A stretch of DNA of 64,000 nt. Origin: an uncultured Acidobacteriota bacterium. GTDB taxonomy: Bacteria > Acidobacteriota > JAQAZP01. Positions 641-64,000 of this stretch are shown here, piece after piece. The notes beneath the pieces are model-generated. The model was not told the origin of the DNA. It searched no databases and worked only from the letters and a program-made list of their open reading frames with translations. The position numbers were made by a program, and so were the translations under genes. The DNA is taken from positions 1,504,001 through 1,568,000 of the forward strand of contig CAWIIB010000001.1 of NCBI GenBank assembly GCA_963836075.1. Direction: 5' to 3'. Within the stretch, counting starts at the first letter, position 1; the number at the start of each line of letters is the position of its first letter.

Positions 641-2941
641 ATGAAAAGCAGATTCGATATCCTGGCGGCCGCGGGGATCATCATGGCCCTGCTTGGCGGG
701 GGGATGGCCTGGGCGCAAACAGAGGGCAAAGCCCCCGGCGACCCGCTGCGCCATGCGCTCTCCGGTCTCGGCCCCGGCCCGCTGTACGACCGGGTCCTGC
801 CGCTGGCCGGCGTGCCCGAGCTGGACGGGAGCGATTCGGCCCCGGTGGTCCCCATCAACCGCTGGCGCCAGGCGCTCTTCGAGCTGCGTCTCGCGTCGCT
901 GCCTGCCCCGCCGTCGTCCTGGCCCACCCCATTGCAGGTACGCGAGATGACGGCGGCCCTGGGAGGGGACGACGCGATTCCGCTGGCGGTGCTCGACGTG
1001 TCGTACAGTCGACTGCGGCCTGATTCGATCACCAGTGGCGCCCTCTCCATCGAGGGCGACCGCGTTGCCGTCTCCCCGGGTGCGTCCACCGCCGAATACC
1101 TCACCGCAGCGCGGGCCTTCGCGGCCACGGCCCTGGCGGCGCGGTCGTATCACGGCGAGAGCGTAACCTTCGTCCTGTCGCGAACCCTGTACGTGACCGG
1201 CGGGCCCCTGCCCGCACGCGTGGACGTGGACTTCGACGACGGTCTCGGCCTGCGCGAGGTGACGTTCGACACGCCGGTCACCGTGACCTATGCGAGCACC
1301 GGCCCGCGCACGTTGCACCTCCGTGCGAGCCACGCGGACGGCCATGTCCTGTGGAGCCGCTTCCCCTTCGAGGTGGCCGCGCTGCGCGCGCCCGCCCCGA
1401 GCGCGACCTGGCCGCTCACCGCGGACATCCCTTTCGAGGGCACGGCGGCGTCCGGTGAGGCCTATATCTATCTGGCGGACGGACATGCGTCGCTGGAGGA
1501 TCCGGTGGTGGTGATCGAGGGCTTCGACCTCGACGACAGCATGGGGTGGGACGTGCTGTACGACCTGCTGAACCAGGAGAACCTGCTCGAGGACCTGCGC
1601 GCGCAAGGACGCGACGCGGTGATCCTGAATTTCACGTCGGCCACGGACCCCATCCAGCGCAACGCGTATCTCGTCGTGAAACTGCTGCAGACGGTGCAGG
1701 CGGCGATCGCACCGGGCCGGGAGTTTCCCCTGGTGGGTGCGAGCATGGGCGGGCTGGTGTGCCGTTATGCGCTGTCCTACATGGAGCAGACGGCATTGCC
1801 CCACGGCGTGAACACCTTCGTCTCCTTCGACGCGCCGCAGCTGGGCGCCGACATCCCGCTGGGCATGCAGTACTGGCTGGACTTCTTCCAGGGCGAGTCG
1901 GAGGAGGCCGCGTACCTGCTCAGCCGTCTGGACACGCCGGCCGCGCGCCAGATGTTGCTCTATCACCACACGTCGCCACCGTCCTCCGGAGGCGTCGCCG
2001 ATCCGCAGCGCGCCGCGTTCCTGGCCGATCTGGCGGCCCTCGGAGATTACCCGGCACAGCCGCGCCTGGTGGCGGTGGTCAATGGCAGCGGCCACGGCGC
2101 GAACCAGGGTTTCGCGGCTGGTGAGCAGATCGTGCACTGGGAGTACGCCAGCTTTCTCGTCGACATCACCGGCAACATCTGGGCCGTGCCCGACGGCGCC
2201 GGCCAGCTCATTTTCGACGGCGAGATCGACCTCATCTGGCCTCTGGAGGATTCGTTCATGTCGGTCACCGTTTCCGGCACCCGGCCGTGGGACAACGCGC
2301 CGGGCGGCTCCCGCGCTTCGATGGCGGAAATGGACGCAGTCGAGGCTCCCTACGGCGACATCATCGCCTTGCACCCGGCGCACGCGTTCATCCCCACGGT
2401 CAGCGCCCTCGCCCTCGCCGTGGACGACCCCTTCCACGATATCGCCGGCGACCCCGACCTCCTCTCTCTTACGCCTTTCGCGGCGGTGTACTTTCCCGTC
2501 GAGAACCAGGAACACATCCTCATCACGCCCGAGAACAAGGCGTGGCTCCTCGCTGAGCTCGCGGGCCCGATCTCCACGGTCGCCGCAGGATTGACCTGTG
2601 AGCCTTCTTCGGGGACGCTGCCCTTCGCTACGACGATGACCGCCGTGCTGGACAACCTCTACGCGCAGCAGGTCCGGCGGATCGCCGGACGGATCGACAT
2701 CGACCTGGCGGGGGGGCAGCACTACTCGAACTGGCGCTCCGGCTGGACCAACATCGACGCCGGGGGGAGCTTTGCCTCGTCCTGGAACCAGGCCCTGCCG
2801 GCGCTGGGCAGCCTGGTCGGGCCGAACGACTTCCGGCTCCTGGCGGCGGATGTCACGCCGTCGCCGTACAACCAGCCGCCCTACCCGCCGGCCGGAGACA
2901 CCGACACGGCCAACTGCACGGTGACGGGGATCGCGCCGTAA
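641..2941 (+). CDS. Secreted alpha/beta-hydrolase (esterase/lipase-like) with C-terminal CTD-A module
   Basis: Signal peptide ending AWA; VVIEGFD, nucleophile elbow GASMGG, SFDAPQLGA. The last ~120 aa are LTCEPSSGTLPF...DVTPSPYNQPPYPPAGDTDTANCTVTGIAP. Confidence 0.85.
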   Translation: MKSRFDILAAAGIIMALLGGGMAWAQTEGKAPGDPLRHALSGLGPGPLYDRVLPLAGVPELDGSDSAPVVPINRWRQALFELRLASLPAPPSSWPTPLQVREMTAALGGDDAIPLAVLDVSYSRLRPDSITSGALSIEGDRVAVSPGASTAEYLTAARAFAATALAARSYHGESVTFVLSRTLYVTGGPLPARVDVDFDDGLGLREVTFDTPVTVTYASTGPRTLHLRASHADGHVLWSRFPFEVAALRAPAPSATWPLTADIPFEGTAASGEAYIYLADGHASLEDPVVVIEGFDLDDSMGWDVLYDLLNQENLLEDLRAQGRDAVILNFTSATDPIQRNAYLVVKLLQTVQAAIAPGREFPLVGASMGGLVCRYALSYMEQTALPHGVNTFVSFDAPQLGADIPLGMQYWLDFFQGESEEAAYLLSRLDTPAARQMLLYHHTSPPSSGGVADPQRAAFLADLAALGDYPAQPRLVAVVNGSGHGANQGFAAGEQIVHWEYASFLVDITGNIWAVPDGAGQLIFDGEIDLIWPLEDSFMSVTVSGTRPWDNAPGGSRASMAEMDAVEAPYGDIIALHPAHAFIPTVSALALAVDDPFHDIAGDPDLLSLTPFAAVYFPVENQEHILITPENKAWLLAELAGPISTVAAGLTCEPSSGTLPFATTMTAVLDNLYAQQVRRIAGRIDIDLAGGQHYSNWRSGWTNIDAGGSFASSWNQALPALGSLVGPNDFRLLAADVTPSPYNQPPYPPAGDTDTANCTVTGIAP

Positions 2942-3078
2942 GCTGACAGATTAGAGGTCTGAGGTTTCTGGCCGGGGCTCAGTCTCCTGGCGGGGTTGGG
3001 GCCAGGCGAACACCTGCCGGAACGTTCTCCCTTGTAGCGGCCCGGGGAGCCAGCATCCAGGAAGGGGGACTATGCATT

Positions 3079-4683
3079 TCACATGTCATGACGATACAAA
3101 TCATCTTTCGCCATTTTCAGTTTCTCCGGATAGGAACCCTTCTTAAAATCCTTTAGCCATCTTTTCAGCATAATATATCCACCAAATCGGAGCAGATAGT
3201 TTCTGTAGTATTTCCTGTACCATTTATTAAATGCTGACGTTATGTATTTAACTCTACCTATAAATATCGTAAATGATGAAAAAATGACGATGCGGGGGAA
3301 GTGAAAGAGAATATTCTTAACGATTTTCAGGAAATTCCGAAAATTATAAAAGTTCGACATTATTCTCCCCACCGCCCGCTGCAGTTCCTCGGGAGTGACA
3401 TTGTCGTCAGGTACATATAGTGGAAACTGGCCGTCATAATATTCCCAGCCCAGCCTGTGTAACGGATACAGGCGACGCGTGTTTTCAAGCCGCGCGCGAA
3501 GTTCAGTACCTGGAAGTGGCATGGTCATAAGAACCTGAACCGTATCAATTTTTGCCTTCTGAATAAACTTCCGGAATTCCATTACCTTCTGATCCAGTGG
3601 GATACAAAATTTTTCATCAGGTCTTTTTGGATAACCGAATATAAACATCCCGTGAATAAAAAACCCGTGTTCATGAAAGTTTTTTGTCCACTGCAACATG
3701 TCTTTGGCAAGATAGCCCTTTTTCATCGCAATCAATTCCTGGTCGATGGGCGATTCATAGCCGATGCATATTGCGGATATATTTGCTTCCTTCATGCTTT
3801 GTAACAGTTCAGGATATTTGGCGTCGGTGATACGTGTTTGTACAGTAATCTTCAACCGAATATTATGTTTCTGTTGATACGCTGCAAGGAGTTTACAAAA
3901 CTCGATAGCCTCCTCCCGGTTGGCAGCAAAATGATCGCTTGCTTCAAAAAAGTGACGGACTTTTTTGTTTTCCACGAGATATTCGATCTGTTCCATAATT
4001 TTCTTCGGGCTCGCACATCTTGCTTTTTCTTTGACCGCGCAAAATTCACATCGCAGGTTGCATCCCCGGGTACGGTTGATGGGATAGTATTTCATCTTTG
4101 CGTAGCGAAGGAGATTGAAATCAGGCATGGGAAGTTTGTCAAAATCATGGATCAAGGGTCTTTCAGGAGTTTTGAACACATTGCTGTTTTTTAGAAAGGC
4201 GATACCGTCAACTGTATCCAGCGGCGCTCCCTTCTCCCACGCCAACAGCACTTCCCGTATGGTCAGCTCACCCTCCCTGAAAACAACGACATCAATATTG
4301 TTCGCCAGTGCCTCCTCGGGCAGATTTTCAATATGCTTACCGCCGGCAACTGTTCTCGCGCCCTCTTCTTTGTAGACCAGGGCTAATTCGTAAAGTCGGG
4401 GGATGGTAGAAGATATGGAGCCGTAAAAACCCACTACGTCGGCGGGGCGTTCTTTTTGCAGCTTCCGGTGATCAATCTGGCCATCGTCAGTCCTGGGACA
4501 ATATCTGCCGTGACAATTGTTCTCATCAATTATTTCAACATCCCACAATTCCAGCTTGCTCGCCACCGTGGCAACATAAACGGGACCTACCGATGTTGGA
4601 CTGCTGGCCGCAAATGTGTAAATATTGAAGTTTGGAAATGATGGAATGATTATTCGCAGGCGATATCTTTTACTTTGTGCCAT
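3079..4683 (-). CDS. B12-binding radical SAM protein
   Basis: RGCNLRCEFC (CxxxCxxC); N-terminal cobalamin-binding-like region (VAGGKH...VVFREGE); IGYES and MPLPGTEL motifs. Visibly AT-rich compared with the flanks. Confidence 0.85.
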   Translation of the reverse strand: MAQSKRYRLRIIIPSFPNFNIYTFAASSPTSVGPVYVATVASKLELWDVEIIDENNCHGRYCPRTDDGQIDHRKLQKERPADVVGFYGSISSTIPRLYELALVYKEEGARTVAGGKHIENLPEEALANNIDVVVFREGELTIREVLLAWEKGAPLDTVDGIAFLKNSNVFKTPERPLIHDFDKLPMPDFNLLRYAKMKYYPINRTRGCNLRCEFCAVKEKARCASPKKIMEQIEYLVENKKVRHFFEASDHFAANREEAIEFCKLLAAYQQKHNIRLKITVQTRITDAKYPELLQSMKEANISAICIGYESPIDQELIAMKKGYLAKDMLQWTKNFHEHGFFIHGMFIFGYPKRPDEKFCIPLDQKVMEFRKFIQKAKIDTVQVLMTMPLPGTELRARLENTRRLYPLHRLGWEYYDGQFPLYVPDDNVTPEELQRAVGRIMSNFYNFRNFLKIVKNILFHFPRIVIFSSFTIFIGRVKYITSAFNKWYRKYYRNYLLRFGGYIMLKRWLKDFKKGSYPEKLKMAKDDLYRHDM

Positions 4684-5157: not shown

Positions 5158-7625
5158 ATGAACTACAGTTTCAGATCAAGGGCCCGCGCCCTGTCAATCC
5201 TTGCCCTGCTGCTCTGCGTATTCCTGTTCACTGCGAGCGGCCTCGCCGAAGAATCACGGCCCCTCCTGACACCCGAGCAGCAGAAGTGGCTGGATGAGAA
5301 CCCGCACAGCCTCCCCATCTGGATGACCCCGGAGGAGCAAGCGCGCAAGGATGAGATCGGCATCAACTTCCGCGGCACGGCGGCGCCTCCGGTGCCGGTG
5401 CGCATGGCCGGCGAGTTCGAGCCGGTGACCGGCGTGCTGATCCGCTGGCCCCTGGGCATCCCCTACGACCTGATTGCCGAGATGTCCGAGGACGTGGAGG
5501 TCTGGACCATCGTCGGCAGCGCTTCACAGCAGAGCACTCGGCGGAAAGCGCCTACAGTTCCAGCGGCGTGAACATGGCCAACTGCCACTTCTTCATCGCC
5601 GGCACCGACTCCTACTGGACCCGGGACTACGGGCCCTGGTATGTCTACACCGGCAACGACGAGCAGGGTATCGTCGACCACATCTACAACCGCCCGCGGC
5701 CCAACGATGACGAGATCCCCCAGGAGTTCGGCGACTACCTCGGCATCCCGGTCTACGGCATGGACCTGGTGGCCACCGGCGGCAACTGGATGTGTGACGG
5801 CCGCGGCGTGGGCATGAGCACCCGTCTGATCCTCGACGAGAACCCGGGGATGACCGGGGCCCAGGTGGACCAGATCCTCCTCGACTACTGCGGCATCACC
5901 GACTACTACCCGCTGCCCTACACCGAGTCGGGCGGCATCCATCACATCGACTGCACCAAGAAGTTTCTCGACGTGGACACCATCCTGGTGGAGCAGAAGA
6001 CTCCCGCCGACCCGGAACTGGAGGCCAACGTGGCCTACCTCCGGACCCTGACCAGTTCCTGGGGCACGCCGTACGAGATCATCCGGGTGCCGGTGGGCAA
6101 CGGCTACACCGAGGCCTACACCAACTCGCTGATCCTGAACACCAAGGTGCTGGTGCCCACCTTCGGCACCTCCAATGACGCCGTGGCGCTGCAGATCTAC
6201 GAGGATGCCATGCCGGGCTACGAGATCATCGGCTTCGACGGCTCCTGGCTCTCCGACGACGCGATCCACTGCCGGGCCAAGGGGATCATGGACCGCTACA
6301 TGCTGTACATCGATCACACCCCGCTGACCGATCCCCAGGTATCCGGCGGCAGCTACCTGGTGACCGCCGAAATCCACCCCTACAGCGGTCAGCCGGTCAG
6401 CTCCGGATCCCCCCAGCTGCGCTACAGCTTGAACGGCGACCCGTTCACCAGCGTCACCATGACCAGCACCGGCGGCGACAGTTGGCAGGGCACCATCCCG
6501 GCCCAGGCTGACGGCACCTCGGTCCGCTACTACATCCACGCCGAGGACGACTCCGGCCGGGCGGAGAATCACCCCTACATCGGATCCGCCGGCGCGCACC
6601 GGTTCGTGGTATCCAGCACCGGCTCCTACCTGATCGCGGGGCCCGGTCCGGGTGAGGCCAACCCACCGCTGGTGCGGGTCTTCCCGCCCGGGCAGGATGC
6701 GGCACACGTGTACGAGTTCAGCGCCTACGGCGCGTCGCAGTATGGCGTGAACGTCTCTTGCGGGGATGTGACCGGTGACGGGTTTGACAAAATCCTCACC
6801 GGTGCCGGGCCGGGAGCGATTTACGGCCCCCACGTGCGCGGCTTCTCCGTGGACGGCACGCCTCTGGCCGGGCTGAACTTCCTGGCCTACGGCACCAACA
6901 AGTACGGGGTGAATGTTTCGGCGGGCGACCTCGACGGCGACGGCTTCGACGAGATCGTCACCGGCGCCGGTCCGGGTGCGGTATTCGGGCCCCACGTGCG
7001 CGCATTTGACTACGACGGCTCGCCGGGTATCACCCCCCTGTCCGGGGTGAACTACTTCGCCTACGGCACGCCCAAGTGGGGGGTCAATGTCACCTGTGGG
7101 GACATCGACGGCGACGGCTATGACGAAATCGTCACCGGCGCAGGCCCCGGGGCTGTGTATGGGCCACATGTCCGGGGATGGAACGTGGACGGCGGGACCG
7201 CGTCAGCCATGCCGGGAGTGAGCTTCCTGGCCTACGGTACGAACAAGTTCGGGGTGAATGTGAGTTGCGGGGACATGGACGGCGACGGGATGGACGAGAT
7301 CGTCACCGGGGCCGGTCCCGGTGCCGTGTTCGGCGCCCACGTGCGCGGCTGGAACTACGATGGTTCAACCGTAACCGAGTTGCCGGGGATCAACTTCTTT
7401 GCCTGGCCGTCGGGAGAGGGACGATACGGGGCGAAGGTCTGCGCCGGAACCGACCTGGACGATGACGGGCGGGCCGATCTGGTGGTTGGTCAGGGCCCGG
7501 ACCCGTCTGCGGCCACGCCGGTCAAGGTCTACCGCTACGACGGCGCGCAACTGACCCGGTGGTTCGACCTGGAGGCCTACACCGGCCTGACCCACGGGAC
7601 CACCGTGGCGGCCGGGAGGTTCTGA
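5158..7625 (+). CDS. Secreted agmatine/peptidyl-arginine deiminase family protein with C-terminal CTD-B FG-GAP module (frameshift near 5538)
   Basis: AGGAG RBS then ATG 5158 and a signal peptide. RMAGEFEP is in ORF 5083..5571; WTRDYGP, GGNW, HHIDC, YTNSLI and DAIHC are in ORF 5568..7625. The frames join at AGC ACT cg GCG GAA AGC. GAGPGAVFGPHVR repeats start at ~6630. Confidence 0.85.
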
Positions 7626-8586: not shown

Positions 8587-9574
8587 TCAGGGAGCCGTGC
8601 CGCTGACCGTACACTGCGCCGTGTCGCTGTCGGCGGAGGGCAGGTAGGGCGGCTGATTGTACGGCGCCGGGGTCACGTCCTCGGCCAGCAGGGTGAACAC
8701 GTTGGCCCCCACCAGGGTGGCCAGCGCCGGCAGGTTCTGGGTCCAGGAGGTGCTGAACTCTTCACCGGCTGTCAGGTTGGTGTAGCCGGAACGCCAGTTG
8801 GTGAACTGGCTGCCCCCACCGGTGGTCAGATCAACCCGCCCGGCGACACGGCGGGTTTCCCCGGTGAGATTGCCCAGCTGCGCCTGGAAAGTGAAGCTGA
8901 AGGGCAACTGCCCGGAGGCCGGCACGCAGCTCAGCGTGGCGGTCACCGTGTCGGTTGGCCCGCCGGACGGCTTCACCGTAGATCTCAACGTCGTCGATGT
9001 TCCAGCCCGAATAGGCCCAGCCACCGGCGGCCTGAGTGACCTCATGGCCCCACCGCAGGTAGACCGTGGCCTGGTTGTCGGCAACGGCGGAGAGGTCGAA
9101 CACCTGCTCGTACCATGCATCGTCGGCGACTTCAGCAAAGCCGTTGTTCCAGAGCTCGGTCCAGTTCGAACCATCGCTGGACACCTCCACGGTGGCTACC
9201 ACCCAGGGCTGCCAGTCACTGTTCAGCCAGCGCTGGAAGTGGAGGCTCACCTGGGTCAGGTCGCTACAGTCGATCGCCGTGGTGCTCAGGTACATCGGGC
9301 CGGCTTCGACGAGGGCAAAATCCCCGTACAGGTTGATACCGTAAACGTTTGTGCCCGTAGCCCCGGCCGTGGGGTCGGGATAGCCGAACGAGTCGCCGCC
9401 CAGACCCTGGGGCTGGCCGAACTGCCACTCCCCTTCCATGGTCCATCCGGGCTCGGTATCCATGTTCCAGGAATACTGCACCACCGGCTCAGCGGATACG
9501 CCGCCGGCGGTCAGGGCGGCGAAAATCAGTGCGAGAAAGATGAAAGCAACAGCACCAAATATCTGACGTCTCAT
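8587..9574 (-). CDS. Small secreted protein: jelly-roll/MAM-like domain plus CTD-A (frameshift near 8972)
   Basis: ORF 8831..9574 has a signal peptide and GWTMEGEWQFGQP...GWNIDDVEIYG. It continues in the frame of ORF 8587..9174 as PSGGPTDTVTATLSCVPASGQLPF...DVTPAPYNQPPY...CTVSGTAP. Confidence 0.8.
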
Positions 9575-10067: not shown

Positions 10068-11621
10068 ATGAGAAATGGAACTGCACTACTCTTCATCTTT
10101 GTTCTTTGCCTGGGCTTGATGACCGGTTCCGCTGAGGCGCAGTGGGCCTCGGCGGTCACCGAGGAAGTGACCTCGGGTCCGAATTTCGACCACCTGGGCG
10201 ACAACGCCGTTCTGGTGGACAACGCCGGAACCCTGCACGCGGTGTTCGACCGGATCGATGACGATCCCGACTACGGCCACAATCTCTACTACACTCAGAA
10301 GCCGCTGGAGGGCAGCTGGTCCACACCGTTTCCCATCGGGGATCACAACGAGCTGCAGAGTTCCGCCTCGATGACCATCGACCGGGCCAGCGGTACGCTC
10401 TATGTGGCGTATTTTGAAGGTGAGGACTTCCTGCTCGCTATCCATGACGGACTGTCTTGGGTCTACGAGGAGCTGACCATCCCGGCCGATTACAGCTTCG
10501 GCAATGCCGATGTGGCATTCGGCCCGTCCGGAAACCTGCACCTGACCTACCTCGCGCACGATGACATTTCCGAAGTGTGGACCGTGGGCTACGGCTACTG
10601 GGACGGCACGAACTTTCATGTCCAGGTGCTCGACGAGGTCACGCTCATCGAGGCCGGCCGGTTCACCCTGCCCGACATCAGCGTGCGTTCCGACGGCAGC
10701 GTGGCCATCATCTATCGCAACTGCTGGCAGTATATGGAGTTCAGGGTGGAAGTTGCGGAAAACTCGTCCCTCGGCGGTACTGACTGGACCTATCACAACC
10801 TGAACATCTCGGGGCCAACGTGCTATGCCGGGCCGCTGGTCACCACGCCGGACGATGACATCCACGTGACGATCCACACCAACCTGGAGATGATGTTCCC
10901 CGGACAGATCTACTACAACCATCAGGCGGCCGGGTCGGGGATCTGGGACGGGCCCCAGTTGGTCAGCGGTTCGTTCAATGCCCGGTTCCCGAGTATGGTG
11001 GTGGAGGACGACGGGACGGTGCACATCGTCTGCCATGAAACCGACGGACTGCACGCCACCGGCAATCTGATTTACATCACCAACAGCGGCGGGTCCTGGA
11101 CGCAGCAGTACATCGTCGAGGGTGACGCCGAAGACCCGTCTCTGGACATGGACAGTGGTGGAAACTGCAGCCTGATCTATCGCGTAGGTCTGGAATACTA
11201 CGCGGACAACGACATCTTCTACTACGGGTGTGTCCAGCCGTCAGGGCCCGCCGCCACACTGGCTGCCGCCCTGGACTGCACGCCGTCCACGGGAACAGTG
11301 CCGTTCCAGACGGCGGTCTCCGTCACACTGGAAAACCTCTACCAGGACCAGGCTCGCCGGATGGCGGCCCACATGGATGCCACACTGGCCAGCGGCAGTT
11401 TCTTCCCCAACTGGCGGGCGGGCTACGCCAACCTGTCCGCCGGGGAGAGCTTCGTCACCAGCTGGATGCAGACCATCCCGGCGCTGGGCTCGGTGATTGG
11501 GGACAATATCTTCACCATCGTGGCCCAGGACGTGACGCCGGCGCCTTTCAACCAGCCGCCGTACCCGGCAGCCGGCGACACCGCATCCGACGCCTGCACC
11601 GTGACCGGCAAGGCACCGTAA
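10068..11621 (+). CDS. Secreted beta-propeller (BNR-like) protein with CTD-A
   Basis: GGAG RBS and ATG 10068; signal peptide ending AEA; repeated DxxGxxHxxY blades. C-terminus LDCTPSTGTVPF...DVTPAPFNQPPY...CTVTGKAP. Confidence 0.8.
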   Translation: MRNGTALLFIFVLCLGLMTGSAEAQWASAVTEEVTSGPNFDHLGDNAVLVDNAGTLHAVFDRIDDDPDYGHNLYYTQKPLEGSWSTPFPIGDHNELQSSASMTIDRASGTLYVAYFEGEDFLLAIHDGLSWVYEELTIPADYSFGNADVAFGPSGNLHLTYLAHDDISEVWTVGYGYWDGTNFHVQVLDEVTLIEAGRFTLPDISVRSDGSVAIIYRNCWQYMEFRVEVAENSSLGGTDWTYHNLNISGPTCYAGPLVTTPDDDIHVTIHTNLEMMFPGQIYYNHQAAGSGIWDGPQLVSGSFNARFPSMVVEDDGTVHIVCHETDGLHATGNLIYITNSGGSWTQQYIVEGDAEDPSLDMDSGGNCSLIYRVGLEYYADNDIFYYGCVQPSGPAATLAAALDCTPSTGTVPFQTAVSVTLENLYQDQARRMAAHMDATLASGSFFPNWRAGYANLSAGESFVTSWMQTIPALGSVIGDNIFTIVAQDVTPAPFNQPPYPAAGDTASDACTVTGKAP

Positions 11622-11717: not shown

Positions 11718-11837
11718 AACAAAGCAGTCGATGGTCACCCCCACTGTGGGGCCCTCATTGCCGGGCGCGCATACATGCTGTATCATATCAACGGTTTAGA
11801 CAGTTCCTGGAGCATCGGAAGCTGGCATGGAGAGAGA

Positions 11838-42245: not shown

Positions 42246-42254
42246 TGGATCGAA

Positions 42255-43248: not shown

Positions 43249-43265
43249 AAAAACGGACAAGAAGA

Positions 43266-43294: not shown

Positions 43295-43307
43295 ATAGAT
43301 GAAGAGA

Positions 43308-45449: not shown

Positions 45450-45465
45450 TTCACCCTCCTTTTGC

Positions 45466-46470: not shown

Positions 46471-46613
46471 TCCTCCTCTGAACCAACAAAGATATTTTGA
46501 TAGTGTTATGATTTTTTATCAGTGGCCGGCTTCTCCTTTCCCCTCTTTTGCCAGGCCTGCAATTGAAAACCCAGTCGTCGGAACCGCCGGGCCTGGGCCC
46601 GGCCGCTCCGCGT

Positions 46614-46979: not shown

Positions 46980-46984
46980 GCTTC

Positions 46985-47059
46985 ATCATTTCGTGAATTA
47001 ATAGTTGCGTAGTGCTTTAATTCAACGAATGATATATGACAAAACCATGACAAAGTCAA
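46985..47059 (-). promoter_or_regulatory. arsR promoter/operator region
   Basis: TTGACT -35 on the minus strand; imperfect inverted repeat at 46985-47001/47017-47033; TTGTCAT-N4-TTGTCAT direct repeat. Confidence 0.6.
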
Positions 47060-47192
47060 CGGGATCAGAGCCCCGATCCATACAGATAATTCCTATAGAA
47101 TCAGTAGGATATAAGATTCAACCGATTCATCGAAAAGCATTTATTCGAATCCAGCTTCCTCGGCAAAGCTCAGGAACTTCCCCGAAATTTTG

Positions 47193-53259: not shown

Positions 53260-53344
53260 GCCTGCGGACCGTCAAGAATTGACTTCCCCGGGTCAGTGAG
53301 TATCCTTTGATTTTTCCCGAATGACGCCTGGCTGGACCAGACAG

Positions 53345-55612
53345 ATGAAAAAGATCCTCTTCATCATCACCCTGCTGATCCTGGCCGTACCCGCCCCGGC
53401 CGACGAGAAAAAGACCTACACCATCAAGCGAACGGCTTCGGAGATCACGGTGGACGCCCGTCTCGACGAACCGGCCTGGGCCGACGCCCTCACCGTTGAA
53501 CTGAACTACGAGACCTTCCCCGGCGACAACGTCCCGGCCCGGGTGCGCACCGAGTGCCTGCTGGCCTACGACGATTCGAATCTCTACGCCGCCTTCCGGG
53601 TCTATGATCCCGAACCGGAGAAGATCAGGGCCCATTACTCCGACCGCGACAAACCGTTCAACGACGACATGGTGGGCCTGATGCTCGACACCTTCAACGA
53701 CGAGCGGCGGGCCTACGAGTTTTTCGTCACCCCGCTGGGGGTGCAGATGGACCTGGTGGAGGACGACGTGAGCGGTACCGAGGACACCTCCTGGGACGCC
53801 ATCTGGACCTCGGCCGGCCGGCTGACTCCCGAGGGGTATGTGGTGGAGATGGCGATCCCCTTCAACCAGCTCCGCTTCCCTGCTGCGCCCGGGGTCCAGA
53901 CCTGGGGGATCGACATCGCCCGCGCCTGGCCCCGCGACCAGCGCTATCTGCTCCGTCTCCAGCCCCGGCGGATGGACATCTCCTGCCACTACTGCCAGGT
54001 CTCCAAGCTCACCGGCCTGGAAGGGCTGGAACCGGGACGGAACCTCTCTTTCTACCCCACGCTCACCGGCGTATACACCGAGCGCCGCGAGGATTTTCCC
54101 GAGGGCGGTTTCGGCACCGAGAAATCGGAACTGGAGCCCGGCATCACTGCCCGCTGGGGCGCCACCCCCAACGTCACCCTGACCGGGACAATCAACCCCG
54201 ACTTCTCCCAGGTGGAGGCCGACGTGGCCCAGTTGAGAATCAACCGCCAGTTCGCCCTCTTCTACCCCGAGAAGCGGCCCTTCTTCCTCGAGGATGCCGA
54301 CTACTTCGAGACCCCGCTCAGCGCGGTCTACACCCGCACGGTGGCCGACCCGCTGTGGGGGGCCAGGGTCACCGGCAAGCAGGGTGCCAGCGCCTTCGGC
54401 TTCTTCACCGCCCAGGACACGGTGACCAACCTGCTCTTCCCGGGCAGCGAGCAGTCGGCCTTCACCTCTCTGGACGACCCGTACCTGACCGGCGTCCTGC
54501 GCTACCGCCGGGACGTGGGAGGACATTCCAACGTCGGCTTCCTGGTCACCTCCCGCCAGGGGGCCGAGGACTACGAGAACACGGTCTACGGCGCCGACGG
54601 CCAGATCAGGCTCAGCGATGCCGACTCGATCCAGCTGCAGCTGCTGGGGTCCACCACGGCCTACCCGAACCAGGTGACCGCGGATTTCGAACAGCCCGAG
54701 GGACAGTTCAGCGGCCTGGCCGGCGTGGCCAACTACAATCACGGCAGCCGCAACTGGAACTGGTGGCTGAGGTATGAGGACTTCGGCCGGGACTTCCGGG
54801 CGGACAGCGGGTTCATCCCCCGCGTTGACTACCGCACCGGGCTGGCCGGTCTGCACTACAACTGGTGGGGCACCGACGAGGACTGGCACAGCCGCATCGG
54901 CCTGGGGGGAGACGTCGATATCACCGAAGACCAGGACGGCAACCCGCTGGAGAAGGAGGCCGAGTTCTGGGCCGAAATTCACGGCCCGCTGCAGTCCCAA
55001 TTGGAAGCTGGTGGGAGCGTGCGGGAACAGACATACCACGGAGAGACATTCGACCAGGCCTTTGGCGCACTTTTGGGCGAAATTTCACCAAACGCCTGGT
55101 TCTCCGGCCGGGTCCGTGTCGAGTTCGGCGACCACCTGGACTACACCAACGTCAGGAACGGTGATTTCCTCCAGGTCCGCCCCAGTGTGACCTGCCGTCC
55201 GGGTCGGCACTTCACCCTCGAACTGAACCATACCTACGAGCAGCTCGATGTGTCAGACCACCGGCTGCTGGTTCCCGGCCGCCTGAGCGAAGGCCGGCTC
55301 TACCAGGCCAATCTCACCGAGCTGCGCGGTATCTGGCAGTTCAACACCCGCAGCTTCGTCCGGGCCATCATCCAGTATGCCGACATCGACCGCACCCCCG
55401 CCCTCTATTACCAGCCCGTGGACGGGGAGACCCGGGACCTCTTCGGCCAGTTCCTCTATTCCTACACGCTCACCCCGCAGACCGTGCTCTACCTCGGCTA
55501 CTCGGAGAACCAGCACGCCTGGGACGACCCGTACAGCGGCACGGACAGCATCGGCCTGACCCGCAGCGACTGGACCGTATTCATCAAGATCGGCTATGCC
55601 TGGCTGCTGTGA
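53345..55612 (+). CDS. CBM9-like/DUF5916 outer-membrane protein
   Basis: DARLDEPAW, EMAIPF, NPDFSQVEAD and PEKRPFFLE motifs; barrel-like C-terminus FIKIGYAWLL. Confidence 0.82.
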   Translation: MKKILFIITLLILAVPAPADEKKTYTIKRTASEITVDARLDEPAWADALTVELNYETFPGDNVPARVRTECLLAYDDSNLYAAFRVYDPEPEKIRAHYSDRDKPFNDDMVGLMLDTFNDERRAYEFFVTPLGVQMDLVEDDVSGTEDTSWDAIWTSAGRLTPEGYVVEMAIPFNQLRFPAAPGVQTWGIDIARAWPRDQRYLLRLQPRRMDISCHYCQVSKLTGLEGLEPGRNLSFYPTLTGVYTERREDFPEGGFGTEKSELEPGITARWGATPNVTLTGTINPDFSQVEADVAQLRINRQFALFYPEKRPFFLEDADYFETPLSAVYTRTVADPLWGARVTGKQGASAFGFFTAQDTVTNLLFPGSEQSAFTSLDDPYLTGVLRYRRDVGGHSNVGFLVTSRQGAEDYENTVYGADGQIRLSDADSIQLQLLGSTTAYPNQVTADFEQPEGQFSGLAGVANYNHGSRNWNWWLRYEDFGRDFRADSGFIPRVDYRTGLAGLHYNWWGTDEDWHSRIGLGGDVDITEDQDGNPLEKEAEFWAEIHGPLQSQLEAGGSVREQTYHGETFDQAFGALLGEISPNAWFSGRVRVEFGDHLDYTNVRNGDFLQVRPSVTCRPGRHFTLELNHTYEQLDVSDHRLLVPGRLSEGRLYQANLTELRGIWQFNTRSFVRAIIQYADIDRTPALYYQPVDGETRDLFGQFLYSYTLTPQTVLYLGYSENQHAWDDPYSGTDSIGLTRSDWTVFIKIGYAWLL

Positions 55613-55626: not shown

Positions 55627-57828
55627 TCACCAGGCGAACCGGCCGGCGGCCACGTTCACCCCGTGGGTCCAGCCATCGGGAAAGGCCTGGAGCGAGTGCC
55701 AGAGCGACAGGGTCCCATTCCGGCAACGGTAGATGTTGATCCGGGACCCGCCCTCCGGGTCAGGCCCCTCCCCCACCACCAGGTCATCGGTGCCGTCGAA
55801 GTTCAGGTCGCGGCAGGCAAAGACGGAGGCGCCGTAGCGGGCGTCCCCGGCAGGCCAGGCGAGGAAGTCGATACCGGTCAGGGGGGTGATCGTCTGACCG
55901 TCATAGTTCCAGCCGCGGATGTGAGCGCTGAATACCGGCGAAGGGCCCGGCGCGGTAATGATCTCGTCGATATTGTCTCCGTCAACATCACCACAGGTCA
56001 CCCGCACGCCCATCCGGTTCGTTCCATACGCCAGAAAGTTCACCCCGTCAATGGCCCTTGCCGGATGGTCGTCAACGGACCAGCCGCGCACGTGGGGTCC
56101 ATAGATCGCACCCGGCCCGGCACCGGTGATGATCTCATCCGGCCAGTCGCCATCGATGTTGCCGCAGGCCACGTTGACACCCCACCTGGGCGTGCCGTAG
56201 GCAAAGAAATTGATATCGGGCATGGGGCTCGCCTCGCCCGATTGGTCGTCAACGGTGAAGCCCCGGACGTGGGGCCCAAATACGGCCCCCGGCCCGGCGC
56301 CGGTGATGATCACCTCGCCCCCGTCCCGTTCCATGATCCCGGTGGTAACGTTGACCCCGTAGCGGTTTGTTCCGTACGCCATGAAACTGAGTCCGGTGAC
56401 CGGCTCACCGAATCGTGAAAACCCCCGCACATGGGGTCCGTAAATTTCACCCGGGCCGGGCCCGGTGATGATCTCCATATATGGATTGCTCGTGGTCAGG
56501 TACCCCGCGGTCACGTTCACGCCATGGCGCGGCGCGCCGTAAGCCGGAAACGCCATCGATGGCTCCGGATCCTCGGTGAGGGGAAAAACCTTTACCACGG
56601 GCGGATTGTCTTCGGACGGCCCGGCACCGGCCAGCAGCCAGACCGGCGGCGGCCAGTCCACGGGATAGTGGAAACCCATGTCCAGTCGGCCCGTATCAAC
56701 ACCCGTGTCGGTGCGCGTGGTTCCGCCGTGGGGCGGCAGCTCCGGGTTGCCGGCATCTACGCAGAGGCTGTCGACGAACTGGCCGGCCGCCTGCTGGGAG
56801 AGCAGGGACTGGCCGACAAAGAGGGGATCGACATCCAACATCCCCTCACCGATTTCAATGTCGCTGGATTCGTTATAAATCCATTGCCACCCGTTATCGA
56901 CCATTGAATAGTCGATCCCGAAGGTTCCGTAGAACACTGCGATCTCGTCTCCCAGGGTGGACCGGTTGAAGTGGAAGATGGTGTTGGAGATGATGGTATC
57001 CTGGTTAAAGTTTAGCACTCCACCGCCGTAGGTGTCCCCGCCTCCGTCACAGTCCGCCTCGTTGTAGGCGATGGTGCACTGATCGACGAGCAGGTATCCG
57101 CCCCCGGCATAGACACCTCCGCCGTAACCGATAGAATCGTAGACCGCACCGAATCCGATGGCCAGATTCCAGATGATCAGGTTGTTGACCAGGTATAGTG
57201 GTTGCTCATCGGTTCCGCAGTTGAAGAGGCAAACACCTCCGCCATAGGCGTGCACCCAATCGTAGATCCCGTCGGAATCATTGCTCCGGATGATGTTGCC
57301 GGTGATCATTGCCGAGGAATTCTCACAGAATATACCGCTGCCCGCCTGGCCCCCGTTGTCGCGGATCAGGTTGCCGGTGATGGTGGGGCTGCTGTCCAAA
57401 CAGAGAATGCCGCCGCCGCACCGCAAATCCCAGGAAGGCAGATCCGTGCCACGGCCGCGGTGGATGGTGAACCCCTCAAGAATCGAGTCGGGGCCTTCTC
57501 CGGACTCGAAGGTAACCACGCTGCCCACCCCCGGACCGTTCTCGATCCTGGTGTTCCACGGACCATCCTCGGATCGAAGGTGAACCGCCTTGCCGAGAAA
57601 ATTGATCGACTCCACGTAGTCGCCGGCGGACACCAGCACGGTGTCGCCATCTGCCGATGCGTCGATCCCGGCCTGGATGGAGGGCTGGTCACCCGGCACA
57701 TGGATCGTGTCGGCAGGTGCGGTCAGGGCGGCGGTCAGCGACAGGCCGAGCACCAGACCAGCAGGCAGGAGGATCGATCGGCACCCCCCCCTGAAAAACC
57801 TCTCGTTGATCGACATTTCGCCGCTCAC
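55627..57828 (-). CDS. Secreted right-handed beta-helix protein with CTD-B
   Basis: TIHVPGDQPSIQAGID, GGGI repeats, CVDAGNP...DMGFHYP linker, then the GPGPG...GPHVRG module. Start is 57828 (GTG) or 57816. Confidence 0.85.
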   Translation of the reverse strand: MSGEMSINERFFRGGCRSILLPAGLVLGLSLTAALTAPADTIHVPGDQPSIQAGIDASADGDTVLVSAGDYVESINFLGKAVHLRSEDGPWNTRIENGPGVGSVVTFESGEGPDSILEGFTIHRGRGTDLPSWDLRCGGGILCLDSSPTITGNLIRDNGGQAGSGIFCENSSAMITGNIIRSNDSDGIYDWVHAYGGGVCLFNCGTDEQPLYLVNNLIIWNLAIGFGAVYDSIGYGGGVYAGGGYLLVDQCTIAYNEADCDGGGDTYGGGVLNFNQDTIISNTIFHFNRSTLGDEIAVFYGTFGIDYSMVDNGWQWIYNESSDIEIGEGMLDVDPLFVGQSLLSQQAAGQFVDSLCVDAGNPELPPHGGTTRTDTGVDTGRLDMGFHYPVDWPPPVWLLAGAGPSEDNPPVVKVFPLTEDPEPSMAFPAYGAPRHGVNVTAGYLTTSNPYMEIITGPGPGEIYGPHVRGFSRFGEPVTGLSFMAYGTNRYGVNVTTGIMERDGGEVIITGAGPGAVFGPHVRGFTVDDQSGEASPMPDINFFAYGTPRWGVNVACGNIDGDWPDEIITGAGPGAIYGPHVRGWSVDDHPARAIDGVNFLAYGTNRMGVRVTCGDVDGDNIDEIITAPGPSPVFSAHIRGWNYDGQTITPLTGIDFLAWPAGDARYGASVFACRDLNFDGTDDLVVGEGPDPEGGSRINIYRCRNGTLSLWHSLQAFPDGWTHGVNVAAGRFAW

Positions 57829-60800
57829 TCCTCCCCGAAATTCCCGGCCGCCAGGCGGCCGCCCTGGCGGACCAGCTCCGGGTCATAGGCGATGAAGTTG
57901 ACCCGCGGCATGGGGGTCAGCGCCACGCCATCGTAGTTGAACCCCCGCACGTGGCAGGGGAAGGCCTCGCTGGGCCCGGGCACGGTGATCAGCTCGTCGA
58001 TGCCGTCGTCGTCCAGATCGCCGCAGGCCACCACCACGCCATACCCCGTGGTCTGGTCGTAGGGGAAGAAGTCCACCGACGGCATCGGCGCCAGCGTACC
58101 CTCCTCGTAACTCCAGCCGCAGACCCGCGGGCCCATTGCCGGGTCGGGCCCGGGACCGGTGACGATCTCGTCACGGCCGTCACCGTCCAGGTCGCCGCAG
58201 GCCACCCGGATGCCGAAGCGGCATGCGGCGTCGTAGGCAAAGCAGTTGATCTGGGGGATGACCACGGCCGCGGCGCCGTCCACATTCCACCCGCGAAGGT
58301 GGGGGCCGAACATCCCTCCCGGGCCGGGCCCGGTGATGATCTCATCGAAGCCGTCCCCGTCCACGTCGCCGGCGGTGACGTTGAGGCCGAACTTGTTGGT
58401 GTTGTACGCCAGGAAGCTGACCCCGGGCAGCGGGGACACCACGCGGGCCACCGGATCGTAGCTGAAGGCCCGCGCGTGGGGGCCGAAGACCGCACCCGGC
58501 CCCGGGCCGGTGATGATCTCGTCCCGCCCGTCACCATCCAGGTCTCCGCCGGCCACACCCACGCCGTAGTTCAGTGTGCCGTAGGCCATGACCATGGCGG
58601 CCCCGCCGTCCACCGGCGAGCCGTCCATCTCGAAGGCCCGGACCAGCGGCCCGAACGCCGTCCCCGGGCCGGGCCCGGTGAGAATCTCGTCGAAAAGGTC
58701 GCCGTCGATGTCCGCCGCCGCCACGTTGACCCCGTAGCGGTCGGCTCCATAGGCGGTGAACTCGTCGGAGAACTCGTACCAGTCGTTCAGTGTGCGGCGG
58801 AAGGTGCGCACCAGGGCCGGGTTGGCCTGGGCCGGTCCCGGTCCGGTGAGGATCAACGTGCGGTAGGCCATCATCAGCGCCGGGACGGTGACCACCCCGC
58901 TGTCCGGATCATCGCTCAGCACCTGGATCGTCCCCTGGTGGGTGCCGGTGCTCAGTCCGCCGGCGGCGAAGATCACCTGGATCTCCACGCTGCCTCCCGG
59001 TGCCACCTGGCCCGAAGCGGGCTGGAAGCTGATCCAGCCCACATCGCTCTGCAGCTGGAATGACAGTTCCACGCTACCGGTGTTGCCGATGAACAGCGCC
59101 GTGGCCTCCCAGGTCTCTTCGTAGAGCATCAGCTGCAGCTCCGTGGGGGTCACCACCACATTCGGGCGGCCGAGGTGGAAGTTCACCGCGGCATCAGGAG
59201 GAAGGGTGGCCTCCGCCGGAGCGGAATCGAGGTAGCCGTCAGCCGAAGCCGTCAGGGTGTAGGTGCCGGGTTCGAGGCCGACAATGTCATACTCCCCGCC
59301 CTGGCCGGCAATCACCGACCCGGATGACGGCCCGCTGTAGGTGACCACCGCGCCTTCCAGCCCGGTCCCGCCGGACATGTCGTCCACCACGCCGGCAATC
59401 CGGCTCAGCGCCTCCACGGTGAGTTCGAAGGCCCCGCGCCACACGCCGCTGACCCCCTGGGAGGCGATGGTCAGTTCCACGGTGAAGGTGGTGCCGTTGG
59501 GGCAGGATGGTGAAATGTACAGGTCAAAGTCATCCAGCGAAACAGCGCTGCCGCCCGCCGGGATGTCGTTCCAGGTTTCACTGTCGTCGGTCACGGTGAC
59601 CCAGGCGCAGTCGTTGACCTCGATGGTGGCGGTGACCGCCTGTGCGGCCGCCGCGCCGTTGTTGACCAGGGTCAGGGGGATCTCCACCGACTCCCCGGCC
59701 TCGGGGACCCCGTCACCGTCGCCCTGGCTGCTGCCCTGGCTGTCGTCATCCACCAGGTGGTCCTGGTAGGCGATCACCGGACCGTCAAAGACCTCGATGG
59801 TCAGGGGGACGGCCAGCGGGTTCTCGTCCGGGTCATTGGTGTGCAGGAGGAACTGGGCCTCGTGCACGCCGAACGCCATGTCCAGCGAACTGAAGTTCAC
59901 CATCAGCTGCTGGTTGCCCCCCGGCGCCACGCTCCCGGCCTGAATGTCCGGCTCGGCCCAGTAGCCGGTGCCGGTGACCAGCATCTGGTGGTAGGCGTTG
60001 ATCCCGGTGTCCGACTGGCTGTACGGGTCGGGCGGCGGGTAGACGTCATCCACCACACCGGTCTGCAGTGTCCCGAAGGTGGTGGTGTAGGGCGGGTACC
60101 CCGGACCGCGGTAGTAGGTGCAGGAGCTGTCGAAGGCACAACCGATGAAGTAGTATTTCCCTTCCTCCAGTTCCAGCTCAATGGGCCCGGAGCTGTACCA
60201 GGCCGTGCCGCCGCCCGGCTCCGCCACCTCGACCCCAAAGACCCTCTGGTAACTGCCGGTGAGGGAGTCGCCCTCGTAGACCACGTGCACCAGGTTGGTG
60301 GCCGAGGTCATGTTGAGCATGAAACGGACCTCGCGGAGCAGCGTCTCACTGTCCACGTGGTAGACATTGCCCCTGGTGCGGTAGCCGCCGGAATAGCTGT
60401 CATAGGTGCTGCCGAGGGTCTCCTCCTGGATCCCCACACCAGCGCCATCCACCTGCACCTCGAAGTCGAGGGTGACATCGCCCAGGTTGTCCACCCGGAA
60501 CGGCAGCTGCAGTTCGGACCACGGGGGCAGGCTCACCGAGAACGACTCGGGGGTCACGGCGATGTCCGAAGCCCCGAGGGCGAAGTCGGCCACCGCGTTG
60601 GGCGGCAGGGTCACCTGCAGGGGGACGGCATCGGAGTAACCGGCGGCCCCGGCCATGACGGTGTAGCTCCCGCTTGCCAGACCGTAGGCGAAATAGTGGC
60701 CCAGCTCGTTGGTGCCGAAACTCCTGTCGGTACCGGGCCCGCTGAGGGTCACCATGGCGGCGGGGAGAGGCATTCCGCTGCCCAACTCAGTGACCTGGCC

Positions 60801-63800: not shown

Positions 63801-64000
63801 GAAGGCCTCCCCGGACACCGTCAGCGGTGAGAGGGTCAGCGAGGGGAGCGAGAAGACCAGCTCCACCCCGCCGCGGTCGCTGCGGGCCACGGTGAATCCC
63901 GCCTCGCCCCAGCCCTTGTCAAAAACCAGTTGCTGAACCTGCGGCGCGGAGGTTGCCGGCAGCGCCGGAACCACGAGGACTAGAACAGCGATGAGCAGTT
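57825..64000 (-). CDS. Giant (>2050 aa) gingipain-like C25 cysteine peptidase with Ig-like/carboxypeptidase-regulatory-like repeats and CTD-B (start beyond window)
   Basis: C25 propeptide, SDNVYAD...GRI, catalytic HRDHG and FSINCLTG, C25_C region, three NGNG..(D/E)xGE domains, C-terminal FG-GAP module. Confidence 0.88.
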   Translation of the reverse strand, partial: LLIAVLVLVVPALPATSAPQVQQLVFDKGWGEAGFTVARSDRGGVELVFSLPSLTLSPLTVSGEAFTQVSIPGAMLPTGPGMPNLPGAGRLVAVPNGAKIEVEVLQSRTRTLSGINVLPAARIPLETEPTPLPVKDPVIYSTNAVWPAQPVTMSTRRYLRGVETRMLGITPFGYNPVTGELTVYTDLRIRLTFSGGEGTVGTERLRSRHWDPILEKQLVNFDLLPEVDYSGRDYRGLDGVEYIIVVPDDPDFISWGQTLADFRQLQGISSQVFTVTEMGGNYAASIESFIDDAYNTWGTAPVAVLFLGDHAADGQPGGVVSPTHGYYVSDNVYADVDGDDLPDVVAGRITARNAAELAVMINKVLDYEQSPPTVPDFYNNPMVACGFQTERWFQICTEIVRGFWANELGKTPLRQYNVYSGSPDPGDPWSTNSNTWMLVEHFGTAGLNYIPDTQPAIDWNSGSAAGINAGINAGCFVLQHRDHGSETGWGEPDYGISDLSGIDNGDLLPWVFSINCLTGMFDMSGECFAEVFHRMEGGALGITAATDVSYSFVNDTYVFGSYDSMWPDFDPSYPTTGRDPGRDDLRPAFANASGKYFLEASNWPYNPSDKEITYYLFHAHADPFTTLYSEVPGSMSVTHGAALLSMVPFFTVTAPEGSLIALTRGGEILGTAEGTGAPVDVTVPGQLPGLPPVTVTVTKVNCYRYQADVEVIPPSGPYVAFSNWTIDDSGGNGNGLLDAGETVNLTVTLRNYGVEAATTVAAVLSSGDPLVTIHADSVSYGDIDPDASASGSGTYVVELDVTCPDGQALGFGVDVTADGGHQWASAFSLVGQSDPDVAVTPATLDPFCFEGVDTSVDLLVENLGTRELDGTFTAGAPWITVVPGSGQVAPGGSALVTVNCDATDLGAGIYSSEVILESNDPDEPTLAVPVTFTVQSSPILFYLNHRIDDDNLGESQGNGNGNPEANETIELQVSLVNRGTVTASGVTAVLMSDDPYIQLTDTVEEMPDIEPGSAGTSLDDFGFTVLGTCPAEHLLQLELALSANEGPKQWVDGFTCHITATLNAVTGQVTELGSGMPLPAAMVTLSGPGTDRSFGTNELGHYFAYGLASGSYTVMAGAAGYSDAVPLQVTLPPNAVADFALGASDIAVTPESFSVSLPPWSELQLPFRVDNLGDVTLDFEVQVDGAGVGIQEETLGSTYDSYSGGYRTRGNVYHVDSETLLREVRFMLNMTSATNLVHVVYEGDSLTGSYQRVFGVEVAEPGGGTAWYSSGPIELELEEGKYYFIGCAFDSSCTYYRGPGYPPYTTTFGTLQTGVVDDVYPPPDPYSQSDTGINAYHQMLVTGTGYWAEPDIQAGSVAPGGNQQLMVNFSSLDMAFGVHEAQFLLHTNDPDENPLAVPLTIEVFDGPVIAYQDHLVDDDSQGSSQGDGDGVPEAGESVEIPLTLVNNGAAAAQAVTATIEVNDCAWVTVTDDSETWNDIPAGGSAVSLDDFDLYISPSCPNGTTFTVELTIASQGVSGVWRGAFELTVEALSRIAGVVDDMSGGTGLEGAVVTYSGPSSGSVIAGQGGEYDIVGLEPGTYTLTASADGYLDSAPAEATLPPDAAVNFHLGRPNVVVTPTELQLMLYEETWEATALFIGNTGSVELSFQLQSDVGWISFQPASGQVAPGGSVEIQVIFAAGGLSTGTHQGTIQVLSDDPDSGVVTVPALMMAYRTLILTGPGPAQANPALVRTFRRTLNDWYEFSDEFTAYGADRYGVNVAAADIDGDLFDEILTGPGPGTAFGPLVRAFEMDGSPVDGGAAMVMAYGTLNYGVGVAGGDLDGDGRDEIITGPGPGAVFGPHARAFSYDPVARVVSPLPGVSFLAYNTNKFGLNVTAGDVDGDGFDEIITGPGPGGMFGPHLRGWNVDGAAAVVIPQINCFAYDAACRFGIRVACGDLDGDGRDEIVTGPGPDPAMGPRVCGWSYEEGTLAPMPSVDFFPYDQTTGYGVVVACGDLDDDGIDELITVPGPSEAFPCHVRGFNYDGVALTPMPRVNFIAYDPELVRQGGRLAAGNFGEE

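Follow-up and report, generated by a model that had tools for sequence, protein, structure and literature searches.

Two mutually exclusive C-terminal modules on several hundred exported proteins of an Acidobacteriota lineage: candidate address or tethering domains

When a series of secreted proteins with mostly unrelated N-terminal portions all end in one or the other of two conserved modules, the question arises as to what these modules do for the proteins that bear them. This question is raised by a 64,000-nucleotide stretch of DNA (the whole of which is referred to below as the window) from an uncultured bacterium of the phylum Acidobacteriota (assembly GCA_963836075.1, contig CAWIIB010000001.1, positions 1,504,001–1,568,000). 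The first-pass annotation of this DNA had described ten such proteins, five ending in a module termed CTD-A (CTD for C-terminal domain) and five in a module termed CTD-B, and all ten were recovered in the present work. The modules had been proposed to be lineage-specific tags for export, attachment or docking, which could define an undescribed secretome-assembly system; the tags stand as an evolutionary and architectural pattern, and the assembly system is something that we can still only infer. The combination of characteristics described below, viz. a folded terminal module, its presence on hundreds of unrelated exported cargos, the existence of two exclusive types, and their swapping between paralogues, is the hallmark of address or anchoring modules. 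We regard the chances as evenly balanced that CTD-A and CTD-B are post-Sec address or tethering modules that would bind a surface or matrix ligand.

The occurrence of both modules was determined using hidden Markov models (HMMs) built from the window copies, which were searched against all stop-to-stop open reading frames (ORFs) of the whole genome (6.23 Mb in 10 contigs, 94.7% complete). For CTD-A, 220 domain matches were obtained in 219 ORFs, 188 of which have the full module; 31 of the matches are fragments, many of them adjoining frame breaks. A stop codon follows within 9 residues in 187 of the 189 near-full-length copies, the other two being internal, and the final residue is a proline in 162 of the 187 terminal copies. 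CTD-B was detected in 130 ORFs at 350 bits or more, and in 116 of these the module ends within 10 residues of the stop codon. Genome-wide, the modules (188 CTD-A and 130 CTD-B ORFs) are thus overwhelmingly terminal, and the random placement that would have spoken against a tag was not observed. No ORF of the genome contains both modules, which extends to the entire genome what had been claimed for the window. In an all-against-all comparison of C-terminal 90-residue segments, made with all 10,547 ORFs of at least 200 amino acids (aa), the same two families were the largest, with 188 members for CTD-A and 138 for CTD-B, and the third had 51. The 318 ORFs bearing CTD-A or CTD-B span 675 kb, or 10.8% of the genome, and are found along the full length of both large contigs, the window lying in the densest 100-kb bin. 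The modules are not a peculiarity of this locus, since they occur on both large contigs and in all three genomes of the class (3/3). The two-module pattern is far above chance.

By a crude heuristic, N-termini resembling signal peptides were found in 132 of 172 CTD-A ORFs and in 85 of 115 CTD-B ORFs, as compared with 100 of 400 control ORFs. By this measure the carriers look exported, and the occurrence in cytoplasmic proteins that would have weakened the proposal is not what was seen. For the window, signal peptides had been reported on all of the proteins except a C25 (gingipain-family) peptidase that is cut off by the window end; this exception falls away, as both the start of the peptidase and a signal-peptide-like N-terminus lie about 115 bases past that end. 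Lipobox-like sites are rare (6 of 188 CTD-A and 8 of 130 CTD-B ORFs). Upstream of either module, neither a Pro/Thr-rich linker nor a conserved cleavage motif was found, and the composition there is near the whole-protein average.

The proteins that carry these modules are diverse. The cargo families of CTD-A include beta-helix, C25, S8, C1, GH5, PQQ and FG-GAP propellers, BNR, LTD, PA14, PKD, and CBM96, and in 42 of 87 representatives the cargo has no Pfam family at E ≤ 1e-5. Those of CTD-B include C25, S8, C1, M28, esterases, deiminase, transglutaminase, sortilin/BNR, and beta-helix. When the CTD-A cargos were compared with the 115 CTD-B cargos, 107 of the 172 had a homologue there (E ≤ 1e-10), and for 93 of those 107 the alignment spans at least 60% of the shorter cargo. 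The deiminase gene of the window (5158–7625, +), which ends in CTD-B, has a paralogue with CTD-A at its end (C1:769790-772615); over 1351 nucleotides the pair shows 96.7% identity, and the likeness breaks off at the CTD-B boundary. Two adjoining paralogues with 70% identical cargo also bear different modules. Based upon these cargo homologues bearing the other module, and upon the deiminase pair, the modules are therefore exchanged between proteins that are otherwise alike, with at least one exchange being recent. The claim that the two modules are interchangeable is strongly supported by these results.

CTD-A is about 115 aa long, with the consensus ...NWRxGY...W.Q..PALG...DVTPAPYNQPPYPP.GDTD...CTVTG.AP followed directly by the stop codon. 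No Pfam or NCBIfam model matched it in the window proteins or in the 87 representatives, none of 73 isolated modules matched Pfam at E ≤ 1 bar one chance GIY-YIG match at 0.051, and the CTD-A profile found no chain in the PDB (best E 0.16, to ribosomal proteins). As judged from these searches, CTD-A is an uncatalogued family. The structure predicted from 73 sequences (pLDDT 96.7) is a seven-strand immunoglobulin-like (Ig-like) sandwich with a long ordered loop, residues 87–102, in which the most strongly conserved residues are found; D86 is conserved in 100% of the copies, T88 in 99%, and P91, N93, and P96 in 98%. In 127 of the 189 copies a cysteine pair joins the region of the first strand to that of the last, in agreement with the carriers being exported. 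The top fold match was the Vibrio cholerae biofilm scaffold RbmA (Z 10.8, root-mean-square deviation 2.2, 100 aa), with other Ig-like domains coming next; the CARDB structure 3idu gave a Z of 8.5 against the model, and the ESM Atlas provided a weak CARDB-like lead (first match 0.90, 166 shared features). An assignment to CARDB (PF07705) by sequence was considered and rejected, as 0 of 73 modules matched at E ≤ 1 and the remaining leads are weak. The genome also holds divergent CTD-A-like tails (E 1e-5 to 1e-10), at G000:C1:997674-999677 (-) and in about ten more ORFs, which are Cys-rich and are without the DVTPAPYNQPPYP loop; within this genome, the fold family thus extends beyond the core module.

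CTD-B is about 335 aa long and is made up of repeats of the type F.AYGT.K.GVNV..GD.DGDG.DEI.TG.GPGAVFGPHVRGWNYDG. As a correction to the first-pass annotation, this module can be assigned to a known repeat family: four of the five window copies match the Pfam families FG-GAP (PF01839) and FG-GAP_3 (PF13517) above cut-off, and the fifth, in the gene beginning at 55627, matches PF13517 only, at 19.3 bits, which is below cut-off. The best 120 CTD-B relatives all have a precomputed FG-GAP family, which is PF01839 in 119 of them and PF14312 (FG-GAP_2) alone in P0245. Five GDxDGDGxDE motifs, putative calcium-binding loops, are conserved across 25 aligned copies. The AlphaFold2 model of CTD-B (25 sequences, pLDDT 90.7) has 24 strands forming six blades, and its best whole-model matches are six-bladed propellers (Z 20–21.6). 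The classical integrin-alpha-type FG-GAP propeller has seven blades, and the CTD-B model, with six, departs from the classical family in this regard. CTD-B is, by its sequence matches and predicted fold, a member of the FG-GAP repeat family in a six-bladed form that serves as a general tail. In a Foldseek search, first place was taken by UmbA4, from the umbrella toxin of Streptomyces, in complex with a cell-surface polymer (9oee); the N-acetylglucosamine (GlcNAc) lectins PAL and PVL came next, and then integrin alpha, Bap1, and CRTAC1. UmbA lectins are described as binding glycopolymers of the cell surface.

In regard to the distribution of these modules, a search of 1.84 billion representatives with the CTD-A profile yielded 497 proteins at E ≤ 0.001. 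Among the best 150 of these the module is terminal in 146 and non-terminal in 4, and a tandem CTD-A-CTD-A arrangement is seen in 8. Of 41 related species genomes, CTD-A is present in three, all of one genus, which is the entire class among the sampled genomes; all three genomes of the class (3/3) are positive, with at least 150, at least 106, and at least 89 matches, respectively. A motif scan of 185,579 species genomes gave 121 matched stretches, 120 of which were confirmed, and all 79 CTD-A loci among the matches listed come from two sister genomes, one of them labelled Acidobacteriota. In the genomes searched, CTD-A was hence found, by sequence similarity, only in a class-level lineage of the Acidobacteriota. 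CTD-B at full strength (more than 500 bits) likewise occurs only in the CTD-A-bearing genus, and a distant version of it (77 bits or less) is present in multiple copies in a second lineage of the phylum, the genus g29 (3/3 genomes); none of the other 115 sampled genomes of the phylum had CTD-B at E ≤ 1e-10. Of 11 g29 ORFs that were examined, the propeller module is terminal in 8, cut at contig ends in 2, and internal in 1, and no CTD-A was found in G030, the one g29 genome searched for it. In a large protein collection, at least 3331 proteins matched CTD-B at E ≤ 1e-5, on contigs of up to 1.39 Mb.

Two further observations concern relatives of CTD-B. In the g29 loci (L080-L087, from G030, G059, and G073), the propeller module is found in many proteins, with repeats of the type FKAFG..N..GEVH...GD.D.DG.DEI..G.GEGG.S.VKVF..DG, with ...GEVHLG[RK]SNY as a frequent C-terminus of the proteins; these genomes are of about 2.2 Mb and about 50% GC. 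Contig depth, summed over four sediment or salt-marsh metagenome runs, rises 30- to 100-fold across the central CTD-B blades at window positions 6872–7339, which fits the presence of many paralogues or relatives of CTD-B in those samples.

If CTD-A and CTD-B are address or tethering modules, they would be autonomous, folded, extracytoplasmic domains fused C-terminally to a very large Sec-exported secretome consisting of proteases, esterases, deiminases, and beta-helix and propeller proteins. Once Sec export is complete, the module would hold its cargo on an extracellular ligand that the carriers have in common; the most likely such ligand would be a glycopolymer belonging to the surface or matrix of the producer's own envelope. 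CTD-A would bind by way of the conserved loop and a Trp/Arg surface on its Ig-like sandwich, and CTD-B by way of its six-bladed, calcium-loop, lectin-type propeller. The two modules would stand for two alternative ligands or locations, and a module swap would place one enzyme family at either of them. We favour such binding or tethering over a pure export signal because of the fold neighbours of both modules, the calcium loops, the tandem copies, and the choice-of-anchor domains of NCBIfam, which are present above cut-off directly upstream of CTD-A in 3 of the 87 representatives; two of these three, P0069 and P0083, also match the pre-anchor regions of myxosortase- and rhombosortase-dependent M36 peptidases. 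Ligand binding, the glycan nature of the ligand, and retention at the surface are in each case what we infer from these features.

A number of observations weigh against the tethering of cargo by these modules. A location almost without exception at the terminus would be expected of an export signal more than of a binding domain, and the conserved last residue (Pro in 162/187) also points to an export signal. The folds that CTD-A matches are very common ones, and Z values of 8 to 11 are near the stated background for Ig-like sandwiches; for CTD-B the highest whole-model scores are to generic six-bladed propellers. The signal-peptide heuristic is home-made, and 25% of the control ORFs pass it too. 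No ligand, receptor or partner was identified, and both the secretion route and the surface exposure are putative. The first-pass annotation had further reckoned that a match to a characterised family with a known non-sorting role would tell against its proposal; such a match exists for CTD-B, the known members of FG-GAP being ligand-binding domains and not sorting signals, but not for CTD-A. The support for its tag proposal is limited, too, by CTD-A copies that lie in tandem or, rarely, at internal positions.

The most serious alternative, which we treat as a tentative possibility, is that the modules are the export signal of an undescribed system for translocation across and attachment to the outer membrane, a functional analogue of type IX secretion (T9SS), in which periplasmic recognition of the folded module would be followed by its threading or escort across this membrane and perhaps by cleavage. 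The two modules would then correspond to the type A and the type B tails of the T9SS. This alternative stays alive because of the strict terminal position (187/189 genome copies and 146/150 representatives), the conserved terminal proline, and the T9SS-like cargo; the mutual exclusion of the two modules also speaks for it, and for a signal-less type II secretion system (T2SS) a number of substrates above 300 would, to our knowledge, be without precedent. In the Bacteroidota, the T9SS CTDs of type A (TIGR04183/PF18962) and type B (TIGR04131) are, like the modules here, folded, located at the extreme C-terminus of Sec-exported proteins, present in many copies, and of two exclusive types, and the two sets share C25, deiminase, S8, and beta-helix cargo. 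The T9SS CTD of RgpB, as described in PMC4804311, is a seven-strand Ig-like sandwich with its signal in the last 22 residues, and the sandwich predicted for CTD-A at the extreme C-terminus resembles it, in contrast to the propeller of CTD-B. However, CTD-A is longer than a T9SS CTD, has the conserved DVTPAPYNQPPYP loop and tandem copies, is matched by no tail model, and comes from the phylum Acidobacteriota, and the 335-aa propeller of CTD-B would be very large for a signal. Internal copies, too, are hard to reconcile with an export signal. The T9SS tail models (TIGR04183/PF18962) matched none of 14 window pieces, 87 CTD-A representatives, and 73 modules at E ≤ 1, and found nothing in the six-frame genome in a search made without a positive control; the statement that no T9SS CTD can be recognised in the window proteins is thus borne out and holds for the genome. 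A solved T9SS CTD is also absent among the 50 matches listed of either CTD-A fold search, which excludes nothing.

The search for machinery, which bears upon this same alternative, gave largely negative results. SprA was found in none of 41 genomes and GldM was not found, in both cases without a positive control; PorV was not found either, the control being positive in B. thetaiotaomicron. Candidates for GldK were rejected, as they are partial FGE-sulfatase-type domain matches of at most 90 bits against a cut-off of 350, one of them inside a CTD-A cargo. The absence of any recognisable machinery gene from the window was confirmed, nothing else there having such an appearance. Two secretins are encoded by the genome, and because of these and an MtrB-like porin the organism is probably diderm. 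One secretin lies in a PilM-type cluster; the other (G000:C1:2169994-2172496; L109:8495-10996, -) is in a T2SSE/T2SSF/PilN-like cluster and bears a cohesin domain at its C-terminus (PF00963, 33.5 bits). Of 121 genomes sampled from the phylum, 55 contain the tail region of this cohesin-bearing secretin, for the most part in ORFs of 750–900 aa; being phylum-wide and not tracking the modules, it was rejected as module-specific machinery. No translocon, sortase or scaffold dedicated to the modules was found, and an export signal is thus left with no lineage-specific candidate machinery. The more far-reaching proposal that the modules are two cargo signals of an undescribed export-and-attachment system, i.e. 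an independent counterpart of the T9SS in a class-level Acidobacteriota lineage, handling upwards of 300 substrates, or roughly one tenth of the genome, and with a related propeller-tag version in a second lineage, we consider unlikely. Tethering and export signal are, however, not mutually exclusive.

Two other explanations would place the bound partner elsewhere. The modules could target substrates in the manner of a carbohydrate-binding module (CBM), binding a polymer of the surroundings, for instance detrital glycan or protein, and so gather the enzymes on food particles instead of on the cell. The resemblance of the propeller to lectins and of the Ig-like sandwich to CBM-like and CARDB-like domains, the tandem copies, which are often seen in CBMs, and the sediment habitat indicated by the run labels are in accordance with this. 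However, the cargo consists mainly of peptidases, beta-helix proteins, and propellers of unassigned activity and is mostly not composed of carbohydrate-active enzymes (a GH5 domain is present in 1/87 CTD-A representatives), and this speaks against a CBM that targets substrates. CBMs are commonly placed internally or N-terminally, which is hardly ever the case here, and no CBM family matched CTD-A (0/73). We view this explanation as quite improbable. Very improbable, in our estimation, is that the modules serve in self-assembly or docking, by which they would oligomerise or dock on a scaffold or on each other in the manner of cohesin and dockerin to form an extracellular multi-enzyme coat. The calcium loops of CTD-B, which we take to resemble dockerin-type loops, the cohesin domain on one secretin, and the role of RbmA, the top fold match of CTD-A, as a matrix scaffold would agree with docking, as would the dimerisation of the RgpB CTD by strand swap that is reported in PMC4804311. 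However, the related C-terminal propeller of g29 exists in G030 without CTD-A, and docking of CTD-A to CTD-B therefore cannot be general; no multi-cohesin scaffold was seen, and the cohesin-tailed secretin does not track the modules. For a complex of CTD-A with CTD-B, the predicted score was 0.00 (mark 0.32) with no verdict from the tool, and this speaks neither for docking nor against it.

C-terminal targeting modules on secreted proteins are known as a general kind, as T9SS tails, dockerins, SLH domains, and small sorting signals. Dockerin and SLH modules are, like those described here, small, conserved, and mostly C-terminal on many unrelated secreted enzymes, and they act by binding a shared partner; no match to dockerin (PF00404) or SLH (PF00395) was found in the window proteins or modules, and no scaffoldin was found. 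PEP-CTERM, MYXO-CTERM, GlyGly-CTERM, and LPXTG signals resemble CTD-A in occurring in many paralogous copies, and CTD-A takes their slot after the choice-of-anchor domains (3/87). In contrast to these small signals, the present modules are globular (115 and 335 aa) and are without the motif, membrane helix, and basic tail; their C-termini read ...CTVTG[IV]AP or ...VAAGRF, a hydrophobic helix being absent, and no NCBIfam sorting model matched. CTD-B resembles the FG-GAP/integrin-alpha propellers, PVL/PAL, and UmbA4 in its Pfam match, its five DxDGDGxDE loops, and its nearest Foldseek neighbours, and it is distinguished from classical FG-GAP by its six predicted blades and by being the shared C-terminal module of 130 different proteins in one genome. 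The Bap1 propeller has more blades than CTD-B. In V. cholerae, RbmA (tandem FnIII) and Bap1/RbmC (FG-GAP/VCBS propeller) show likeness in fold to CTD-A and CTD-B, respectively, and PDB titles describe RbmA and Bap1 as secreted biofilm scaffold or matrix proteins; unlike the modules here, these are stand-alone matrix proteins, and the identity is 13–19%. No description of CTD-A, CTD-B or a six-bladed FG-GAP general tail was found in the literature searched, which did not cover subscription journals.

If the modules are indeed address tags, they would define in one stroke the exported proteome of an uncultured sediment lineage and provide two HMMs with which it could be read from metagenomes. 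The same enzyme with either tag would constitute a natural experiment on the means by which bacteria lacking a T9SS position hydrolases by the hundred extracellularly. With CTD-A a new domain family would be added, and general C-terminal targeting would become a further role of the six-bladed FG-GAP propeller.

Within the window, CTD-A is found at the end of an alpha/beta-hydrolase-like secreted protein (641–2941, +; module 2594–2938), a MAM-like secreted protein (8587–9574, -; module 8590–8934), a BNR/propeller-like secreted protein (10068–11621, +; module 11274–11618), a secreted protein with a MAM-like domain (23896–27063, -; module 23899–24243), and a parallel beta-helix secreted protein (29607–31490, +; module 31143–31487). 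CTD-B is found at the end of a secreted Porphyromonas-type deiminase (PF04371; 5158–7625, +; module 6627–7622), a secreted protein with FG-GAP and ASPIC/UnbV (19963–22641, +; module 21643–22638), a pyroglutamyl-peptidase-like secreted protein (49621–51528, +; module 50521–51525), a second parallel beta-helix secreted protein (55627–57828, -; module 55630–56640), and the C25 peptidase, which has Ig-like and CarboxypepD_reg domains (57825 to >64000, -; module 57828–58856). All ten proteins thus end in a module, as had been claimed, but strict terminality does not hold, as the gene at 23896–27063 has in addition an internal CTD-A copy (24790–25125). Its product consists of the internal CTD-A, the MAM-like domain, and the terminal CTD-A, in this order, and the arrangement suggests that two CTD-A genes have been fused.

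Three of the ten genes are broken by frame changes in the record, viz. 5158–7625 (site at 5534–5571), 8587–9574 (site at 8968–8971), and 29607–31490, which is in three frames (sites at about 30000 and about 30800). In four other public runs, the contigs are 1 base shorter at 8968/8971 and 2 bases shorter at 5534/5536. Because of these differences in length at two of the sites, the frame breaks at 5534–5571 and 8968–8971 are probably errors of the record sequence and not marks of pseudogenes.

The window also contains a cluster of the extracellular electron-transfer type (39417–49196), in which multihaem cytochromes fused to cytochrome b561 domains (39417–42245, +, and 47193–49196, -) are accompanied by an MtrB/PioB-like porin (43734–45449, -) and an MtrC-like decahaem-type cytochrome (45466–46470, -); an IS200-like transposase (42327–43202, -) lies inside it. 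Three B12-binding or radical-SAM genes are situated amid the genes for secreted proteins (3079–4683, -; 11775–13317, +, in two frames; 31563–32828, -), and a CBM9 and DUF5916 protein without a CTD (53321–55612, +) lies between CTD-B genes. Elsewhere in the genome, the members of the third C-terminal family (51 ORFs, e.g. G000:C1:2105561-2106841) end in ...L[RK].LGY[VIL]E, which looks like a sulfatase-type tail; the sulfatase complement would then be unusually large.

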